Source: Nitrospirota bacterium
GTDB taxonomy: Bacteria; Nitrospirota; JACRHJ01
Length of the DNA stretch: 64,000 bases
NCBI GenBank assembly: GCA_963845245.1
Contig: CAWJRJ010000011.1
Location: 134,816 to 198,815, forward strand
Reading direction: 5' to 3'
A program made the position numbers and the translations under genes. Numbering within the stretch: the first letter of the stretch is position 1; each line of letters opens with the position of its first letter. The notes below the pieces were generated by a model that was given only the letters and a program-made list of their open reading frames with translations, did no database searches and was not told the origin of the DNA. Below, piece by piece: positions 1-8,116 of the stretch.

Positions 1-348
1 GACGAGGCCGTCGCAAAGGTAACCGAGGAGCTTAAGAAGGAAGGCTTCGGCATCCTGACCGACATCGACGTCAAGGCCACCCTTAAGAAGAAGCTGGACG
101 TCGAGTTCAGGAACTACCGCATACTAGGCGCATGCAACCCGCCGTTCGCCTATGAGGCACTCCAGAAGGAGGACAAGATAGGCACGATGCTCCCCTGCAA
201 CGTCATCGTGCAGGAGAAGAAGCCGGGCGTCTGCGAGGTGTCCGCAATCGACCCGGTAGCCTCGATGATGGCGGTGGGAAACTCCGCGCTGGGCAATGTT
301 GCGACACAGGTGCAGGCAAAGCTTAAAAAAGTGATTGAGAGCCTGTAG
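1..348 (+). CDS. DUF302 domain protein (5' truncated by window edge)
   Basis: Frame 1 reads EGFGILTDIDVKATLKKKL...YRILGACNP...IGTMLPCNVIV, typical DUF302 motifs; stop TAG 346-348. Confidence 0.85.
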   Translation, partial: DEAVAKVTEELKKEGFGILTDIDVKATLKKKLDVEFRNYRILGACNPPFAYEALQKEDKIGTMLPCNVIVQEKKPGVCEVSAIDPVASMMAVGNSALGNVATQVQAKLKKVIESL

Positions 349-351
349 CAG

Positions 352-726
352 ATGTTCATACGCGACCTGAAGGACTGCGACGAGTTCATAGCCGGGGACA
401 ACACCCGGCTCCGCGAGCTTTTCAACCCCATCAAAGACCCGCTTGAGCTTCGGTACAGCCTCGCGCACGCACGGCTTGCGCCGGGCCTCGAATCCACTCC
501 ACACAGGCTCAAGACCTCAGAGGTATACTTTATATTAGAGGGTGTAGGCGAGATGCGGATAGACGGCGAGGTGCGCAATGTCGGGCCAGGCCAGGCAATA
601 TACATCCCGCCGCACGCGGTGCAGAGCATAAAGAACATCGGCAATAACGAGCTGGTGTTTATCTGCATGGTGGACCCGGCCTGGAGGCCGGAAGACGAGG
701 AAGTGCTCTATAGCGGGGTAGTTATT
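352..726 (+). CDS. Cupin domain protein (ORF reads through into next small gene; true end probably near 710-715)
   Basis: PHRLKTSEVYFILEG...GQAIYIPPHAVQSI cupin motifs; domain ends near EDEEVL. Confidence 0.75.
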
Positions 727-944: not shown

Positions 945-1716
945 TTACATCCCGAGCGTTTTCTGCATTTCTTTGTGTATTTTCGAATTACTCGCCAGTA
1001 TCTCGCTCTGAATCCATGAAATGAAAAGGCCCGCCGCTAAGCGATGTAACCTTGCCCCCGGCCTCGGTAACGATGAGCGTGCCAGCAGCGGTGTCCCAGG
1101 GCTTCAGCCCGAACTCCCAGTAGCCGTCGAACCGTCCCGCCGCAATGTAGCACAGGTCGAGCGCGGCAGAACCGAGCCTGCGTATCCCCTGGCTTGCAAT
1201 CGTCATCTTGTCGAACAGCGGAAGTATCATGTCGGCGCGCTTGTCGAGGTCGTACGGGAAGCCGGTGACGATGAGTGAGTTGGCAAGCTTCGGTGTCTTT
1301 GAGACGGATATTGCCTTTCCGTTAAGGAACGCCCCATTGCCCTTAACCGCATAGAACATCTCGCGCCGAACCGGGTCGTGTACCACTCCCACCAGGACCT
1401 CGCCGTCCCGCTCGTACGCGATCGAGACGCAGAAACACGGGAAGCCGTGGGAGTAGTTCACTGTTCCGTCCAGCGGGTCCACGATCCAGCGTCCGCCGTC
1501 GCCCTTCCATGCGGTCTTCTCCTCTGCGAGGAAGCCGTGGGCGGGGAAGGCATCCTTTATTATCCCTGCGATCAGCGCCTCTGAGGCCTTGTCCGCCTCG
1601 CTCACAGGGTCGCGGCGTCCGGACTTGAACTGTATGTCCTTGAGGTTGCCGAAGTAGGAGAGCAGGAGCTTGCCCGCCTCGCGGGCGGCCTTCTTTGCAA
1701 TGGTGAGTTCTTTCAT
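945..1716 (-). CDS. suhB: Inositol monophosphatase (indel near 1010)
   Basis: WIVDPLDGTVNY and WDTAAG motifs; C-terminus ILASNSKIHKEM lies in another frame ending at 945. Confidence 0.9.
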
Positions 1717-1802: not shown

Positions 1803-2240
1803 TTAATCGGCCGGGGTTATCTCGGACCTCATTATGCACACACCGGACCTGCCGCCCATGTACTGCCACTCTATGGTGTAAGTACCGTTCCCGTCGATGT
1901 ATCTCGTGACGTCCTGCTCTATCACCGCGTTTATGGGCGGGTTCGACCAGTCGGCGATCCTCTGGTTCAGGGTGGTGCCTTTCTTCTTCAGGAATATCCT
2001 GCCCTGCGTACTCAACAGATTAGGGTCCCAGCTTAGTTCGCCGCGGAATACATATTTGACGCCGGGTTTCCAATCACCGATGTAATAGGAGTAGGTATTT
2101 TCCGTGGAGTTGGGGTCGGCCTTGCCTATGGAGAGCATGCTGCAGGAGGAAGCCTTCTGCCAATCGTCGGCGATAGCGACGCCTGCCGAAAGTATTAATG
2201 CCGTGCAGAATAAAGCAAAGAACTCTATCATACGACTCAT
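1803..2240 (-). CDS. Hypothetical secreted protein
   Basis: 145-aa ORF with N-terminal signal-peptide-like segment ending AIA. Confidence 0.65.
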   Translation of the reverse strand: MSRMIEFFALFCTALILSAGVAIADDWQKASSCSMLSIGKADPNSTENTYSYYIGDWKPGVKYVFRGELSWDPNLLSTQGRIFLKKKGTTLNQRIADWSNPPINAVIEQDVTRYIDGNGTYTIEWQYMGGRSGVCIMRSEITPAD

Positions 2241-2343
2241 ATCTAGCCTCTTGCTATAATTATAACAAAAAAACTGAACTATGAGGTTTGAGGTGCTTCT
2301 TGGGATGGCGGTCTGAAAGAAAGAGCTTCGAAAAGAAAAAGAC

Positions 2344-2387
2344 TTGACATGGGCAAAAAAACTATGCTAATATGCAGATGTGCATAT
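2344..2387 (+). promoter_or_regulatory. Sigma70 promoter with overlapping palindromic operator
   Basis: TTGACA 2344-2349, TGnTAATAT 2365-2373, ATATGCA-N4-TGCATAT 2370-2387. Confidence 0.65.
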
Positions 2388-2403
2388 CGAAAGGGTGATT
2401 TTT

Positions 2404-2721
2404 ATGAAAAAGAATATATCATTTGGTAGTGTCATTTCGGAAAAGCGTAAAAAGTTAAAAATTAGTCAAAAGGACCTTGCCGCAATGATTATGAAAGAAG
2501 ATGCTCAACCGATTTCGCCGCAATATCAAAATGATATTGAGTATGACAGAAGAACCCCATCTTCCTCTATACTTATTGATCAATTCTCCGAAATTTTGGA
2601 TATAGACCGTGATTATCTTTACTATTTAGCTGGCCGTATTCCCGAGGATATTTTTGAAAAAAAGCTTGATACTCAAAACTTCATTGAAGCTATGGTTGCA
2701 TTCCGAAAAAAAATAGATTGA
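2404..2721 (+). CDS. XRE-family HTH regulator (CapH/ImmR-like)
   Basis: FGSVISEKRKKLKISQKDLA...PQYQNDIEYDRR HTH; SD AAGGGTG before ATG 2404. Confidence 0.85.
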   Translation: MKKNISFGSVISEKRKKLKISQKDLAAMIMKEDAQPISPQYQNDIEYDRRTPSSSILIDQFSEILDIDRDYLYYLAGRIPEDIFEKKLDTQNFIEAMVAFRKKID

Positions 2722-2765
2722 CTCGCTATTTTTTTTGTTTACATAATATGCAAATCAGCGGATTA
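2718..2765 (+). promoter_or_regulatory. Candidate Ubl-operon promoter with second operator copy
   Basis: TTGACT-N18-CATAAT; TAATATGCAAATCAGCGGATTA resembles the 2368-2389 site. Confidence 0.5.
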
Positions 2766-2856
2766 GTTGAGCATTTAACCTATAGACAAGGAGGTGGAAC
2801 TGTTATTCGGTTTTTCAGGTGGTTTTTATTAACTTCATTTCTCAAAGGAGTAAAAA

Positions 2857-3120
2857 ATGAAAACAGAAAATTTTGACAAGAATAACGAGACTAAAGAGCA
2901 CGGTCCCAATGTTTCAATATTTATAGATAACGTTGAAAGGCTTATTCACCGTGGGCATCAGTCTGTTGTGGCAATAAAAGAAGCTGGTAAGGTTCCTATA
3001 GCCTACGATCTTGAACAAATTATTGAAGGAACTCTTACCCCCCTCCCCGATGACGGTGCAATAACAATTAAAGGAGAGGAAAAATTTGTCAGTCACCCCA
3101 AGGACAGCGGTTCGTCTTAA
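2857..3120 (+). CDS. Multiubiquitin-type ubiquitin-like protein (BilA/BubA-like)
   Basis: VSIFIDN...LPDDGAITIKGEEKFVSHPKDSGSS; single beta-grasp-like domain with Gly two residues before C-terminus; operon context. Confidence 0.8.
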   Translation: MKTENFDKNNETKEHGPNVSIFIDNVERLIHRGHQSVVAIKEAGKVPIAYDLEQIIEGTLTPLPDDGAITIKGEEKFVSHPKDSGSS

Positions 3121-3131
3121 AGGAGGACAAA

Positions 3132-3476
3132 ATGAATATTCTACCAGATCAGATTGAAGAGTTTAAGACTCTATTTAATGATGTTCAATTTTGCGAGGAA
3201 GGTGGCAATCCTTATTTTTTAATTCCAGGACTTGCCTTACCTATGGGATGCATCCCTAATAAAACCGATGCTTTGCTATGTCCAACTACACGTGATGGTT
3301 ATACTTCACGACTTTTTTTTGCAGAAAAAATTCAAACTAGGCATTCTCTTAATTGGAATGCATTAGGAGTAAGAATCCTAGAGCGCAACTGGCATGCTTT
3401 TTCTTGGAAGATTCCCCAAGAGAATCTACGGTTGGCTCAAATGGTTGGGGCACATCTCAGGGGGCTTAGATGCTAA
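3132..3476 (+). CDS. Prokaryotic E2/UBC-like protein
   Basis: LPMGC..DALLCP..RDGYTSRLFF...NWHAFSWK; lies between Ubl and JAB genes. Confidence 0.7.
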   Translation: MNILPDQIEEFKTLFNDVQFCEEGGNPYFLIPGLALPMGCIPNKTDALLCPTTRDGYTSRLFFAEKIQTRHSLNWNALGVRILERNWHAFSWKIPQENLRLAQMVGAHLRGLRC

Positions 3477-3979
3477 TCAATTTAAAAATTACTAGATCTC
3501 TATTTAACCAAATGTATTCTGATTTAATTAGGCCTCACCCTTTTGCCTATGAAAGGGTTGGGTTCCTTTACGTAAGGCCGGGTTATATTAACAGCAAAAC
3601 GCTTCTATTGCTTGCGACAAAATATATGCCTGTCCCAGACGAAAGGTACATTAAAGATGACAGCGTTGGAGCACGGATAAATTCTACTGCAATAAGAAGT
3701 ACCATGCAAATGATAATGGATTCCTGCGAGGGAGCTTTGCATGTACACATACATCTTCACAATGGGAAGCCCGTATTTAGTAGAACCGATAACCATGAAT
3801 TGAGTAAGCTGATACCGTCGTTAAAAACAGTAGGCGTTAATTTACCTCACGGCGCATTACTGTTAAGCAAGGATAATTTTAACGCAGTTCTTTCTATCCC
3901 GAAACAAAAGAAGCTGAAGGAAGTTAGAAAGTTATCAATCATTGGTAATCCCGTTGAATTTATGGAGGCGAACAAATGA
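3470..3979 (+). CDS. JAB/MPN metallo-isopeptidase (BilC-like)
   Basis: ERVGF Glu plus HVHIH...FSRTD JAMM-like motif. Confidence 0.8.
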   Translation: MLINLKITRSLFNQMYSDLIRPHPFAYERVGFLYVRPGYINSKTLLLLATKYMPVPDERYIKDDSVGARINSTAIRSTMQMIMDSCEGALHVHIHLHNGKPVFSRTDNHELSKLIPSLKTVGVNLPHGALLLSKDNFNAVLSIPKQKKLKEVRKLSIIGNPVEFMEANK

Positions 3980-4785
3980 ATGCACGATACAAGAGACAAT
4001 CTTTTTTGGGAAGACATTCCCAAGCAATATTTGAAAACTGTGTTGTCGGAATTGTTGGATTAGGTGGTGGTGGGTCTATTATAGTTCAGCAACTAGCGCA
4101 TATCGGCTTTCTAAATTATGTTCTTTATGACAATGACATAATTGAAGATACAAATTTGAATAGGCTAGTTGGCGCCACGACGCAAGATGTAAAACATAAA
4201 AGATCTAAAATGATAATTGCGAAAAGGACTATCCAGAGACTACAACCAACGGCACATATAAATGCAAATAATTCTCGATGGCAAGATAATCCTTATCCGC
4301 TGCGGAATTGTGATATTGTATTTGGTTGTGTTGATGGGTTTGCTGAACGCAGGGATTTAGAGGTGTGTACTCGTCGCTATTTAATCCCTTATATCGATAT
4401 TGGTATTGATGTAAATCACATAGAACCTGAACCGCCAGTGTTAGGCGGTCAAGTAATTTTATCCATGCCAGGAGAACTATGCCTTTCTTGTGTTGGATTC
4501 TTAACTGAAGAAAGGCTGGAAAAGGAAGCTGCTAAATACGGAGATGCTGGTGATAAACCTCAGGTTATTTGGGCTAATGGAATAGTAGCTTCAACTGCGA
4601 TAGGAATTGCTATAGAAATTTTGACTGGATGGACCAAAGTAAAAGAAAAAATTTATTATTTAAGTTATGATGCTGCTAAAGGTACAATGCAGCCGCACGT
4701 TAGATTAGCTTACTTAGGCCATAGAAAAGGGTGCATCCATTTTCCTTTAAATCAACTCGGCGACCCAATATTGAAGACTTTATAA
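3976..4785 (+). CDS. ThiF-family E1 adenylyltransferase (BilD-like)
   Basis: RYKRQ, GLGGGGS, DNDIIEDTNLNRL, CLSC and C-terminal CIH. Confidence 0.9.
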   Translation: MNARYKRQSFLGRHSQAIFENCVVGIVGLGGGGSIIVQQLAHIGFLNYVLYDNDIIEDTNLNRLVGATTQDVKHKRSKMIIAKRTIQRLQPTAHINANNSRWQDNPYPLRNCDIVFGCVDGFAERRDLEVCTRRYLIPYIDIGIDVNHIEPEPPVLGGQVILSMPGELCLSCVGFLTEERLEKEAAKYGDAGDKPQVIWANGIVASTAIGIAIEILTGWTKVKEKIYYLSYDAAKGTMQPHVRLAYLGHRKGCIHFPLNQLGDPILKTL

Positions 4786-5388
4786 TTTCAATCGTGAGAG
4801 GAATTCAATATCTTTATCTTGATCTGCTTTTGATATTTTAGGCCTTACATCCCCAAAATATTTTCTCGAACTATCTGTTTGATAAGGAGCTTCTTCATCT
4901 AATTTAAACAGTCTGACTTGACAAATTTTACTTCCAACTACAAGTTCTACCGCGTTATTACCATGATTAAATAATTCTAGAGGAGCACAGCCTCTAAAAC
5001 CGGGTTGAAGCATCGTATTAATATGAATACCAAGCCTTGTATAGCTGCTTCTGGACAGAATATCAGCGTAAACATTCGGAGGCAATGCAACATATTCTAA
5101 TGTAGTAGAAAGAACTACTTGTCCAGGGTAGAGTATGAATTTTTCACCAATTTCTCGTCTTGTTTCTTGAAAATAAGATGAAATACCACGGTTAAAATGG
5201 TCTTGTTCTTTAGTTAGTTCAATGAATGGTTTTCTTGTAAAAATAGAAACCAGGAAATCATAACCAAGACGTAGATCTATAGTAACCGATCCAATTTGTT
5301 TTTCATCAATTAGTGGATCTATAAATAAAGAATCGAAATCGTTGGAGGAAAGTAGTTTTAAAATGTTTTTTTTATTGAGTAGTTCCAT
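4780..5388 (-). CDS. dcd: dCTP deaminase, trimeric dUTPase-like fold (accessory copy)
   Basis: IDLRLG, TTLEYV, SRSSYTRLG, QPGFRG, LELFN, KICQ motifs. Confidence 0.85.
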   Translation of the reverse strand: MELLNKKNILKLLSSNDFDSLFIDPLIDEKQIGSVTIDLRLGYDFLVSIFTRKPFIELTKEQDHFNRGISSYFQETRREIGEKFILYPGQVVLSTTLEYVALPPNVYADILSRSSYTRLGIHINTMLQPGFRGCAPLELFNHGNNAVELVVGSKICQVRLFKLDEEAPYQTDSSRKYFGDVRPKISKADQDKDIEFLSRLKL

Positions 5389-6436
5389 TTTCCCATTTCT
5401 CTTTTATCATTTTATTTCTAATAGATTTTTCCATTAAATCATTAATCATTTTATCCATTTTAAATTCATCATAATCTTTCCAATAATCTTTTCCTACAGT
5501 TTTAATGAGTTCCAAATAATTCCATCCAGCTTCAAAAATACCATGCAATTCCTCGTCATCTTGTATTTCGTATGGCCTTATGTTATCAAAGAAGGCATCC
5601 ACCTTTAGTTCTTTGTATCTTATTTTTAGTTCAAGCAACGGGTATGTCTTTAAAACATTGTTTATCTGGGTTATAATTTCATTGGGTTTTTGTTCTAAAA
5701 AATCGTTTATATTATTCAATCTGTCTCTGGATGAGGGATGAGTGTCTGATTCGGCATCATCTCCACAGATGCTAGCTAAAGATTTAAAATACGCTTTCCC
5801 CGTATAGCTTGAGGCAAATAAATCGGCAAAAAATTCTTTACGATGATTTTTAATTATTGATAGTTTTGGATCGCTGAACAGTTTCGGATCAACCGCGCCT
5901 TGGAGCAATATAGATTTTTCGGTTATCTTATAGTATTGGTCTATAAAATGCCCTAACTCATGATATAAAGGGACAACGTGAAGTGGTTTATGTTGATAGA
6001 TGTTAGGAAACGCTATTTGTATCAGCTCGTCGTTGATTTGGATTGGTAAGAAAGGAGTTATTACTTTGCCCGGATTTATCGTAAAAAAATGAAAATCAGG
6101 AGCTTCTTCTGTCAAAGCTGTCGTCAATGCGCTAGATGAAATTTGCCAATCCCCTAGTGCTTTCTTTAACGCATAAACAATTTCATATGGTATTCTATTA
6201 TTAGAACTGCCACTAAAATATTTTCTTGAGTACCAAAGAATAGTTGTTATATTTTCTGAAATTTGAGACGGTGTCGCCTCATAATTTTTTAATAGATAAT
6301 CTGAGGCTTGTATAATTTGTTGTAAATATGAATAGATTTTCTTATCAAAAAAGGGGACTTGGGAGAGCCTAACTAGTTCCTCATTAATCAATTTTAAATC
6401 ATTTTTACTATGCAGAAACTTCCTCCATTTCCTCAA
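5372..6436 (-). CDS. HEXXH zinc metallopeptidase-like protein (M48-like motifs); start uncertain
   Basis: YHELGH, EFFADLFA, SDTHPSSRDR; no clear TM segments. Confidence 0.7.
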   Translation of the reverse strand: MRKWRKFLHSKNDLKLINEELVRLSQVPFFDKKIYSYLQQIIQASDYLLKNYEATPSQISENITTILWYSRKYFSGSSNNRIPYEIVYALKKALGDWQISSSALTTALTEEAPDFHFFTINPGKVITPFLPIQINDELIQIAFPNIYQHKPLHVVPLYHELGHFIDQYYKITEKSILLQGAVDPKLFSDPKLSIIKNHRKEFFADLFASSYTGKAYFKSLASICGDDAESDTHPSSRDRLNNINDFLEQKPNEIITQINNVLKTYPLLELKIRYKELKVDAFFDNIRPYEIQDDEELHGIFEAGWNYLELIKTVGKDYWKDYDEFKMDKMINDLMEKSIRNKMIKEKWENGTTQ

Positions 6437-6737
6437 GAATATGGCAAGCTATTTTAGGTGTCAAACTATTGTAATCTTTTAACTCAATAATATCATTGCG
6501 AAAACATGTTTTAATTTTAATTTTTAGAGCTAATTCAATTGCTTCTGGATAAATTTTTTCATCAGCATTTTGGGGTTCGGAAATTAATAACTTAACCTGT
6601 TCGAGAACTTTATCAAAATAGAAAATTAACGTCTGAGGAATAGGCTTCTTTTCTACAGTATTTAATAATAAAACTAATTTGAATAGGTTCATCTCAGCTG
6701 ATGTATTAACAGCTGCATTAATTTTTGCTGCTATCAT
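6408..6737 (-). CDS. Hypothetical protein, first gene of the peptidase-dcd operon
   Basis: Strong SD GGAGG before ATG; overlaps next ORF. Confidence 0.7.
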   Translation of the reverse strand: MIAAKINAAVNTSAEMNLFKLVLLLNTVEKKPIPQTLIFYFDKVLEQVKLLISEPQNADEKIYPEAIELALKIKIKTCFRNDIIELKDYNSLTPKIACHILEEMEEVSA

Positions 6738-6798
6738 AAAATTACCTCCCTCTTTTTAAATTAGTGTTATGCAGGAGGAAACTAAACACCTTCATTAT

Positions 6799-6828
6799 AT
6801 TATAGTTAAGAGATACATTTATTGTCAA
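6799..6828 (-). promoter_or_regulatory. Consensus sigma70 promoter of the peptidase-dcd operon
   Basis: TTGACA-N18-TATAAT on minus strand. Confidence 0.7.
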
Positions 6829-6949
6829 ATTTGTACCTCCGTATGCCAGAGAGTAAAAGAGGAGAGGAAAATCTGACCAATTTTATATGACTTTCATTCA
6901 AGAAGCAATATTTTTCTCTTGACAAGGTATTTTTAATAATCACTACAAT

Positions 6950-7636
6950 CTAAACCTCAAACATCCCCGACCAGCGCCTTAGCTCTTTCGGGTCCGATAT
7001 GATTATCTTCTTGCCTTCGGTGCGGATGATGCCGTCTGACTTGAATTCGGAAAGGATGCGGATGACAGTCTCCTGCGCGACGCCGACCATCTCGGATATC
7101 TCCTGGCGCGACAGCGTGAATTCCGGCCCCTGGTCCTCGCCCTTCGAGTTGAACAGGGTCATAAGGAGGCTGGCCACCTTCTCGCGCGCGTCCTTCAGGC
7201 CCAGGTCGCGTATCCTGTCCTGCGCCTTGTTAAGCTCGCGGTTCATTATCTGGATGAACTTCAGGCCGACCTCGGGGTTGTTCTTGAGGAGTTCGATGAG
7301 GTCTTTCTTCTTTATGCAGCAAAGCTCGGCGTCGGCGATGACCTCGGCGGTGCTCTGGTAATGCTCTTCATAGAGCGAGTCGAAGCCAAGCATGTCCCCG
7401 GCGGAGAGGACGTTTATTATCTGCTCGCGCCCGTCTGCGAGTGACTTATAGATTTTTATCGTGCCGGATTTGATGATGTAGACGACGTTGCTGGGGGTGT
7501 CCTCAAGGAATACGATCTTCTTTCGCTTGAAGGACTTCATGTAGATGAGTGCGCTGATCTTGTCAAGCTCCGCGAAGCCGAGCCCGGCGAGTATCGTGAT
7601 GTTCCTTACTACGCAGTTCTTGCAGTCGCAGCCCAT
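6950..7636 (-). CDS. Crp/Fnr-family regulator with N-terminal Cys cluster
   Basis: MGCDCKNC, cNMP-binding domain, SRQEISEMVGVAQETVIR HTH. Confidence 0.9.
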   Translation of the reverse strand: MGCDCKNCVVRNITILAGLGFAELDKISALIYMKSFKRKKIVFLEDTPSNVVYIIKSGTIKIYKSLADGREQIINVLSAGDMLGFDSLYEEHYQSTAEVIADAELCCIKKKDLIELLKNNPEVGLKFIQIMNRELNKAQDRIRDLGLKDAREKVASLLMTLFNSKGEDQGPEFTLSRQEISEMVGVAQETVIRILSEFKSDGIIRTEGKKIIISDPKELRRWSGMFEV

Positions 7637-7637
7637 G

Positions 7638-8116
7638 TTATTTCACTTTCTCTGTCGTGCAGGAGGACTCCAGCAGCCGCCTCGCCTTCTCCCGCAGGTC
7701 CTTATCCGAGATATTGGCCAGCGACTCTTCTATATCCTCATGCTCCTGCGGCCGGAGCTTCCTCTTCTTGGGTATGAACTTTTCCTTCTTTATCGGACTC
7801 GCGTCCGGGCGTACAAGCTTGCCTGAGCGGAACTTTATGTCCGTGACGGTGCCCGTCGCCCATGACCGAGTTTATCTTCTCGATCAGGCCGGGCGCCATC
7901 ATCGAAAGCTGGTGCATCCAGACCGGGCTGTCAACCGTGACGGTGAGTATGCCGCCCTTTATCGACTCGGGCAGCGCGTGTTTCGCTATACCAGCCCCGA
8001 CAGTCTTGTCCCAGGCTGCAAGGAGCTTTGCCATAATGCCGCCCCTGCCAAGCCCGTGCTCGCCCATCACCTTTGAGAGTATGTCACCAAGCGTCGATGG
8101 GGTCTGGCATTGCCAT
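7638..8116 (-). CDS. dciA: DUF721/DciA family protein (indels near 8100 and 7850)
   Basis: W...VG..IAKHA.P...GILTVTVDSPVWMHQL motif. Confidence 0.75.

Follow-up and report, generated by a model that had tools for sequence, protein, structure and literature searches.

A stretch of 64,000 nucleotides (nt) from a Nitrospirota bacterium (GenBank assembly GCA_963845245.1, contig CAWJRJ010000011.1, positions 134,816 to 198,815; hereafter the window, whose coordinates are used throughout) carries at 2404-4785 a group of genes that an earlier, sequence-only reading had described as a complete ubiquitin-like conjugation operon preceded by a regulator. Our analysis supports a complete conjugation cassette consisting of a ubiquitin-like protein (Ubl), an E2-like protein, a JAB/JAMM peptidase and an E1 enzyme, with a helix-turn-helix (HTH) regulator upstream. 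The tag and enzyme components all most resemble those of the Bub (6E) pathways rather than those of the Bil systems, since the best match of every part is a Bub component. We therefore regard the locus as probably a Bub (6E) lineage cassette of four conjugation genes together with a regulator, in which the modules are separate genes and the DUF6527 protease BubE is absent. The five open reading frames (ORFs; protein lengths in amino acids, aa) are arranged as follows:

2404-2721, + strand: XRE-family HTH regulator, 105 aa; ATG start, with a GTG at 2380 also open
2857-3120, + strand: Ubl, 87 aa; single beta-grasp domain of the BubA/multi-ubiquitin type
3132-3476, + strand: E2-like protein, 114 aa; minimal UBC fold, BubB-like
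3470-3979, + strand: JAB/JAMM metallopeptidase, 169 aa; E28, H91-x-H93, S104-x-x-D107
3976-4785, + strand: E1, 269 aa; single ThiF-type adenylation domain

All five ORFs were confirmed as intact and as lying on the + strand, in agreement with the sequence-only reading. Its description of them as tightly coupled holds for the four conjugation genes, given that the Ubl and E2 genes are separated by an 11-nt gap containing AGGAGG, the E2 and JAB genes overlap by 7 nt and the JAB and E1 genes overlap as ATGA. It does not hold for the XRE gene, as 135 nt separate it from the Ubl gene downstream, with a separate promoter-like site in the gap. Scans against Pfam, NCBIfam, PADLOC and PHROGs recognized only the XRE protein and the E1 and returned nothing usable for the Ubl, the E2 or the JAB, and searches of PDB sequences with the single small proteins, as well as with Ubl and E2 profiles, found no relative. 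The assignment of the Ubl, the E2 and the JAB hence draws on family alignments, a JAB profile and structural models.

The E1 matched Pfam ThiF (2.3e-28) as one domain spanning residues 10-239 of 269 and carries the G-loop GLGGGGS at 28-34. Its best PDB match was Citrobacter BubCD, for which the single sequence gave 1.4e-16 and a 16-sequence profile 1.8e-21, compared with 1.4e-8 and 5.3e-16, respectively, for ThiF. A BubCD-like E1 encoded on a Mesorhizobium plasmid was 36% identical over 244 aa (E 2e-38), as opposed to an E of 4e-12 over 122 aa for the host's own thiamine ThiF, so that the E1 does not group with the ThiF/MoeB enzymes; such a grouping is what the sequence-only reading had named as fatal to its proposal. 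In a phylogenetic tree of 37 rows, with few outgroups and a midpoint root only, 31 family E1s formed one clade (98/99) that was separate from four DUF6527-linked Bub E1s and distant from the ThiF of the host.

These comparisons bear directly on a very unlikely alternative, namely that the cassette is a sulfur-carrier or peptide-adenylating module (ThiS/MoaD-ThiF/MoeB-like or MccB-like), in which thiocarboxylation or nucleotidylation, as opposed to conjugation to proteins, would be the fate of the small protein. Such a module would share with the cassette the E1 adenylation fold, a beta-grasp partner and a CxxC...CxH metal site as in MoeB/ThiF; the E1 belongs to the ThiF family, with weak ThiF, MoeB and MccB matches, and MccB substrates with a non-Gly C-terminus are known. 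However, the NCBIfam ThiF and MoeB models scored the E1 at 42-54 bits overall against cut-offs of 159-376 (TIGR02356, 54 bits with a cut-off of 275; MoeB, 42-50 bits with cut-offs of 266-376), and the E1 falls with Bub-type E1s in the tree. Moreover, the genome has its own ThiF gene, adjoining a radical-SAM gene read as ThiH from its sequence, whereas the cassette has a UBC-fold partner, a JAB peptidase, no GG tail on its Ubl and no biosynthetic neighbours.

The sequence-only reading had also credited the E1 with a nucleotide-binding loop and cysteines. Both are present, but the cysteines look structural rather than catalytic. C169, C172, C253 and H255, which are invariant in 29/29 relatives and follow a CxxC...CxH layout, lie outside the crossover loop and form a probable structural metal (Zn) site. 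The crossover loop itself (approximately residues 173-200) has no Cys and holds Tyr188, again invariant in 29/29 relatives, which aligns with the crossover-loop Tyr (...DPYVQG...) of the DUF6527-linked Mesorhizobium BubCD-like E1. According to the preprint by Ye et al. 2024 (bioRxiv 10.1101/2024.11.21.623953), a Tyr of Citrobacter BubCD (Y370) and a Ser of BubB (S333) were biochemically shown to be oxyester carriers.

The architecture of the E1 likewise makes it scarcely tenable that the locus is a Bil anti-phage system with a minimal Ubl, in which the JAB would expose a Gly and a Cys-based E1 and E2 would tag phage tail proteins. The two do share the same four component types, which in the Bub preprint are named in the BilA-D order (Ubl, E2, JAB, E1), a defence-island context has been proposed for both Bil (Type I/II BilABCD) and the present cassette, and the Ubl sequence contains ...SG-SS. 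Bil E1s, however, are described in the preprint as multidomain proteins (IAD-AAD-CYS) with a mobile Cys domain (bioRxiv 10.1101/2024.11.21.623953), and Bil systems use thioesters and a Ubl that is ISG15-like or has a C-terminal Gly. The window E1 comprises just one domain in its 269 aa and its crossover loop is free of Cys, which already contradicts this alternative, and no Bil structure was found among its PDB sequence matches, where Bub stood on top. The E2 and Ubl models best matched BubB and BubA, Bil was never the best match of any window protein, and the tail Gly is not conserved. Thus, where the sequence-only reading had likened the gene order to both Bil and the related Bub operons, it is the Bub comparison that stands. 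Type II CBASS Cap2/Cap3 was considered as a separate candidate and rejected, as the surrounding island has no CD-NTase or E2-E1 fusion and the Cap2 models match only residues ~4-137 of the E1; these were the partial Cap2 'E1-E2' matches that PADLOC returned on the E1 Rossmann region (best 1.3e-8), with none for the Ubl, the E2 or the JAB.

The relation of the E2-like protein to BubB emerged from its structural model. The AF2/AlphaFold model, with a predicted local distance difference test (pLDDT) score of 93.2, matched BubB (9eae chain C) in Foldseek at an E of 1.8e-3 and a TMq of 0.67, and VIA aligned 112/114 residues with BubB at Z 12.3 and a root-mean-square deviation (rmsd) of 3.1, compared with a Z of ~7 for other E2/UEV chains. 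Among 185 distinct relatives, Ser91, Tyr57, Arg60, Trp75 and Trp87 are invariant, while position 93 varies between Lys, Arg and Gln. Given predicted hairpin strands at 75-82 and 85-90, Ser91 would stand beside Asn76 of an NWN motif, which itself appears to occupy the position of the E2 HPN motif. Two further observations serve as leads only: searched singly against Pfam, 18 E2 relatives yielded one weak Prok-E2_E match (0.012), and in a protein atlas Prok-E2_E clusters first appeared at rank 14 with a score of 0.92.

Besides Ser91, the E2 family retains two cysteines, Cys50 (182/185 relatives; Ser in two, Val in one, a Methylovirgula plasmid member) and Cys40 (166/185). It is therefore conceivable, though in our view improbable, that the architecture is Bub-like while the E2 carries the tag as a thioester on Cys50, possibly together with Cys40, leaving Ser91 a structural or substrate-positioning role. 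The conservation of both cysteines would fit such a scheme, and a nucleophile swap would be expected to show as Ser, which is found in two of the three Cys50 exceptions. On the other hand, Ser91 is kept in 185/185 relatives whereas Cys50 is replaced by Val in the Methylovirgula member, in the MAFFT alignment Cys50 falls within the beta3 'xP..YP' stretch, away from the canonical E2 active-site position, and the partner E1 offers no crossover-loop Cys for trans-thioesterification. A model of the E2 in complex with an E1 dimer and the Ubl points the same way. It reached an ipSAE of 0.72, with 0.40 for the best control; the mark was attained by 116/157 solved complexes and 2/215 mismatched pairs. 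Contacts agreed between runs to 91% or more, and the pLDDT of the partner was no lower than 88. The modelled interface comprises residues 178-189 of the E1 (including Tyr188) and residues 53-57, 74, 76, 79-86 and 91 of the E2, so that Ser91 faces the crossover loop and residue 50 is not listed, an unlisted residue counting as uncertain. Because a like complex, BubCD-BubB, has already been solved, the model supports likeness to that complex rather than proving E1-E2 binding.

In the JAB, E28, H91, H93, S104 and D107 are invariant in 29/29 aligned relatives, bearing out the Glu and HxH...SxxD set that the sequence-only reading had noticed. Three of these residues share their numbers with those listed for BubCD (E28, H91, H93 and D104) in the preprint (bioRxiv 10.1101/2024.11.21.623953), the Asp being D107 here and D104 there. 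The best PDB match of a profile built from the 29 JABs was BubCD's N-terminal domain, a weak match (E 0.009) over 75-165 that is nonetheless colinear, with the HxH and SxxD motifs aligned. One of the 29 members matches Prok-JAB (4.3e-4), and three relatives are labelled 'proteasome lid subunit RPN8/RPN11' by JGI. A match of the window JAB to Pch2_N (residues 66-131; 2.5e-5; 25.3 bits against a cut-off of 27), seen in 1/29 relatives, was treated as chance.

For the Ubl, the AF2 model (pLDDT 82.6) shows a beta-grasp fold from residue 18 onward and a disordered N-terminal tail, residues 1-12 scoring below 50. Its best PDB matches were BubA proteins of the multi-ubiquitin kind from Citrobacter, E. 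coli ZDHYS365 (9cd2) and Methylobacterium, at E values of 6e-4 to 1e-3, TMq of 0.65-0.69 and rmsd of 1.7-2.2. The C-terminus reads ...SHPKDSGSS, which confirms the DSG-SS ending given by the sequence-only reading. The additional proposal that maturation would expose a Gly found no support in a comparison with relatives. In 68/69 distinct relatives the tail could be anchored on F-x-S-H-P-[KR], with the terminal position defined as five residues further on; this position is Ser in 66/68 and Ala in 2/68, and the protein stops exactly there in 61/68, the other 7/68 carrying 2-4 extra residues. A Gly among the last five residues occurs at the third place in 42/68 and at the second place in 35/68, and is missing altogether in 17/68. 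In two natural Ubl-E2 fusions (P0267 and P0259), ...GGSS or ...GSSA is joined straight to the E2 N-terminus, as in BubAB. By comparison, the canonical DUF6527-linked Ubls end in ...FG with 0-4 extra residues. The simplest reading of these tails is that Ser, not Gly, would be the mature reactive end.

Taken as a Bub-type cassette, the genes would be expected to work as follows. The reactive end of the 87-aa Ubl would be its own terminal residue, Ser87. A homodimer-type E1 would adenylate the Ubl C-terminus and then load the Ubl onto the crossover-loop Tyr188, upon which the E2-like protein would dock on this loop and receive the Ubl on Ser91; by analogy with Citrobacter Bub, the intermediates would be oxyesters rather than thioesters. 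The E2 would subsequently transfer the Ubl to target lysines without an E3. Judging from conservation, the JAB would trim the tag back to the terminal Ser in relatives with 2-4 extra residues or a fused E2, while in the window it would mainly recycle or deconjugate.

The closest known counterpart is Type I Bub (formerly 6E.1), represented by BubAB, BubCD and BubE of Citrobacter sp. (PDB 9ea4, 9ea5 and 9eae). The cassette shares with it the module order Ubl, E2, JAB and E1, an E1 with a single adenylation domain, no crossover-loop Cys and an invariant Tyr, the numbering of E28, H91 and H93 in the JAB, a minimal UBC fold with an invariant Ser in the E2, and a multi-ubiquitin beta-grasp in the Ubl; its relatives also show the Ubl-E2 and JAB-E1 fusions. 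Unlike Type I Bub, the cassette has four separate genes without BubE/DUF6527, a Ubl that ends in Ser instead of Gly, an E2 with Lys/Arg/Gln at position 93 and Arg60 in place of the Ser-x-His plus Asp set and with a near-invariant Cys50, and E2 and JAB proteins that fall below Pfam and NCBIfam thresholds. Type II Bub (6E.2; BubA, BubBD and BubE) is alike in its Ubl fold, with 9cd2 among the best matches, and in having the cysteine-free chemistry that is proposed here, but differs in that its E2 is fused to the E1 (BubBD), a JAB is typically missing and BubE is present (bioRxiv 10.1101/2024.11.21.623953).

We also compared the cassette with canonical DUF6527-linked operons on plasmids of Mesorhizobium (L083), Bradyrhizobium (L086), Deinococcus (L087) and Rhizobium (L088). 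These likewise have a separate Ubl and E2, and an XRE-type regulator lies upstream in the Deinococcus operon; the Mesorhizobium one encodes the E1 described above as 36% identical, with its crossover Tyr aligned. They differ from the cassette in that DUF6527 and a 'phosphotransferase' gene are present and that JAB and E1 are fused, save in L088 with its short annotated ThiF gene; their E2s carry WFSWH, and RefSeq names their parts (multiubiquitin, E2/UBC) whereas it leaves the E2 and JAB of the window family 'hypothetical'. The 'phosphotransferase', a protein of 480-535 aa, is encoded between the JAB-E1 gene and DUF6527 (L083 4815-6299, L086 4297-5901, L087 4349-5797 and L088 4234-5757) and is absent from the Type I/II description in the part of the Bub preprint available to us.

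Several results weigh against assigning the cassette to the Bub lineage. The preprint of Ye et al. 2024 (bioRxiv 10.1101/2024.11.21.623953) states that 'all Bub operons encode BubE', the DUF6527 (PF20137) serine protease, yet a scan of 10 proteins from the island and its borders found no PF20137 match, and neither did one of the whole 90%-complete host genome, while a control Caulobacter genome did match. PADLOC, in a release that may or may not hold Bil models, gave no system-level match for the cassette. The E2 is without the Ser-x-His plus Asp set that Type I BubB has, with Arg60 at the MAFFT position of the Bub Asp; the window AFSWK resembles the Bub E2 WFSWH, but the MAFFT register, built from family E2s and five Bub-type E2s, instead sets the Bub Ser opposite Asn86 and leaves the equivalence of the catalytic Ser ambiguous. 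Comparing profiles with hhalign, we found the E2 family to match a canonical Mesorhizobium E2/UBC protein over the N-terminal 50 columns only (90.7%), and the Ubl profile to give no signal (0.3%) with the Mesorhizobium multiubiquitin protein. The near-invariance of Cys50 leaves room for a thioester route. Finally, we know of no tested precedent that could be cited for a C-terminal Ser as an E1 substrate.

The cassette recurs in other genomes. We found 284 word-indexed relatives of the E2, and its family comprises 334 representative clusters at E <=1e-3 (229 at <=1e-10). Because E2 relatives occurred at 331/586 candidate metagenome stretches and 50 of 81 loci had all four modules on one strand (30 loci were cut by contig ends, and L018 had no detectable Ubl), the gene group in the window is more than a chance find. 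Across 80 related loci there was neither a conserved downstream gene nor DUF6527 beside the cassette. The JAB and E1 form one ORF of 441-506 aa in 12 loci, as in BubCD, and these fusions are nested inside the E1 family clade; several family Ubls are multidomain proteins of 240-318 aa, with 1-3 beta-grasp domains found across the family. Members are carried on plasmids of Methylovirgula, Methylocystis, Rhizobium, Bradyrhizobium and Sphingobium, and on the Methylovirgula and Methylocystis plasmids RefSeq names the proteins 'multiubiquitin domain-containing protein', 'hypothetical', 'hypothetical' and 'ThiF family adenylyltransferase'.

We also put forward a broader proposal, which we hold with slightly less than even confidence: the family may be a third, uncatalogued Bub lineage that lacks BubE, in which a stand-alone or E1-fused JAB would be the sole protease, the tag would be activated and conjugated via its C-terminal Ser, the relay would run from E1 Tyr to E2 Ser without a catalytic Cys and an XRE-type repressor would act as the switch. 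The published Bub catalogue was drawn from DUF6527-containing operons, a selection that would have passed over a widespread branch without BubE. The full-text literature that we searched describes no BubE-less or 'Type III' Bub and no Ser-ended bacterial Ubl, bearing in mind that older '6E' papers or the preprints' Table S1 may list such operons. Apart from the Bub pathways, no ubiquitin-like system has been reported to operate without catalytic cysteines. If the proposal is correct, the chemistry of Ubl conjugation would be wider than thought, with a non-glycine donor end and an E2 set of Arg60/Tyr57 instead of Asp/His, and the rule of a C-terminal Gly for Ubls would fail in the BubE-less lineage, should the Ser end prove real. 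The cassette is of value as a minimal model of cysteine-free, possibly Ser-ended, ubiquitin-like conjugation, in which four proteins of 87, 114, 169 and 269 aa allow one to ask whether an E1 can activate a C-terminal Ser, which E2 residue carries the tag and what the tag does.

Concerning regulation, the XRE protein matched Pfam HTH_3 (6.7e-6), PADLOC HTH_VI (1e-7) and PHROG repressor families (~2e-7). Two promoter-like sites precede the regulator and the Ubl gene, respectively:

2344-2387, + strand: promoter-like site TTGACA-18-TAATAT (2344-2373) with a palindrome that overlaps its -10 element
2718-2755, + strand: second promoter-like site TTGACT-18-CATAAT (2718-2747), upstream of the Ubl gene

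The palindrome upstream of XRE, ATATGCA-GATG-TGCATAT, is a putative XRE operator. A 12-nt motif, TAATATGCA[G/A]AT, overlaps the -10 of both sites (2368-2379 and 2744-2755; 92% identical), its first copy belonging to the palindrome ATATGCA-N4-TGCATAT, and XRE might thus repress both its own promoter and that of the cassette through the shared TAATATGCA motif. With 20 promoter-like sites in the region against an expected 18.3, there is no enrichment of such sites as a class, and it is their position alone that counts.

Among 40 family loci with at least 1.5 kb of upstream sequence, some of them near-duplicates, 28 have an XRE-type gene within 2.5 kb upstream (26 divergent and 2 co-directional, one of the latter being the window), 20 have a Peptidase_M78 gene upstream and 11 have both. 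These XRE/M78 neighbours resemble the CapH+CapP pairs that, according to the preprint, adjoin 31% of Bub operons (bioRxiv 10.1101/2024.11.21.623953). We also considered the window XRE and a 354-aa HExxH protein encoded nearby as a CapH/CapP pair and rejected the idea, as they are not sequence relatives of the XRE/M78 genes at the other loci. Further neighbours of the family loci include HsdM, Dcm/Vsr and integrases.

The cassette shares its surroundings with a second operon:

2072-6950, no strand: low-GC island, ~35% versus 58% G+C, holding the cassette and a second, convergent operon

The flanks of this island (window 966-1716 and ~7005-7646) lie only 190-880 bp apart in the family-level relatives G001, G006 and G008, and 2072-6950 had no match in any of the 20 relatives searched, for which reason we read the stretch, from these alignments, as a 4.9-kb insertion, that is, a horizontally acquired island. 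At its borders we found no tRNA and no flanking or att-like direct repeat, and none of the ORFs scanned in or beside the island matches an integrase family or is an obvious mobility gene.

Judged from its context, the role of the cassette is most likely anti-phage or stress defence, because it sits on such an island and because its relatives have XRE/M78, restriction-modification and integrase neighbours. The claim of the sequence-only reading that it is a functional phage-defence system goes beyond this, as it was an inference only, and the Bub preprint reports no phage protection by a Bub operon so far (bioRxiv 10.1101/2024.11.21.623953). That report, together with the absence of BubE and of an integrase or obvious mobility gene among the scanned ORFs, would suit a genuine conjugation cassette with another function, be it stress signalling, mobile-element competition or the decay of a remnant that has lost BubE. 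We consider this somewhat unlikely, given that all genes of the cassette are intact and that the BubE-less form is no one-off loss, as 31 rows of its E1s make up a clade with 98/99 support and its E2 family reaches 334 representative clusters; in addition, the M78+XRE, HsdM, Dcm/Vsr and integrase neighbours elsewhere are typical of defence or mobile regions.

Within the same island, a second operon of three genes (window 4780-6828, - strand) is convergent with the cassette:

6828-6799, - strand: sigma-70 consensus (12/12)
6408-6737, - strand: 109-aa ORF
5372-6436, - strand: 354-aa HExxH protein; phrog_24479 at 1.1e-60, Pfam M48 only at 0.087
4780-5388, - strand: Dcd-type dCTP deaminase; TIGR02274 at 5.2e-36, above cut-off

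At their 3' ends, the E1 gene and dcd have 6 nt in common. The operon had no PADLOC match, a phage collection contained no relative of either the E1 or the 354-aa protein, and a viral contig collection contained none of the latter; the operon may be a nucleotide-depleting defence module or a phage-derived one.

Two individual loci of the wider survey deserve mention. A search of genome contigs with the single E1 sequence found one locus, L001, on an Omnitrophota metagenome-assembled genome (1689-4563), where the genes next to the cassette encode a methyltransferase resembling Dcm, an endonuclease resembling Vsr and a divergent pair of XRE and M78 peptidase, and where the Ubl is immediately preceded, on its upstream side, by a 70-aa ORF without a known family. 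On a Mesorhizobium huakuii plasmid (L089, 1877-7795), a multiubiquitin protein ending in ...HHEDS is accompanied by a divergent, E2-like 'hypothetical' protein and a ThiF gene of JAB-E1 size; these genes lie between a helicase and an SbcCD-like exonuclease/ATPase pair, DUF6527 is absent and the E1 forms a long branch outside both clades of the E1 tree.

At the left island border (~2072), a 145-aa ORF (window 1803-2240, - strand) spans the junction with its 5' part in island DNA; it has a signal-peptide-like N-terminus and no family match. The host assembly, which has an estimated contamination of 5.2% at 90% completeness, contains on its own contig C36 (G000:C36:9321-13195) inverted copies, 82-91% identical, of the segments at window 1-710 and 955-2072. 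These copies end at the left island border, and the duplication is probably due to strain mixture or a palindromic assembly artefact.

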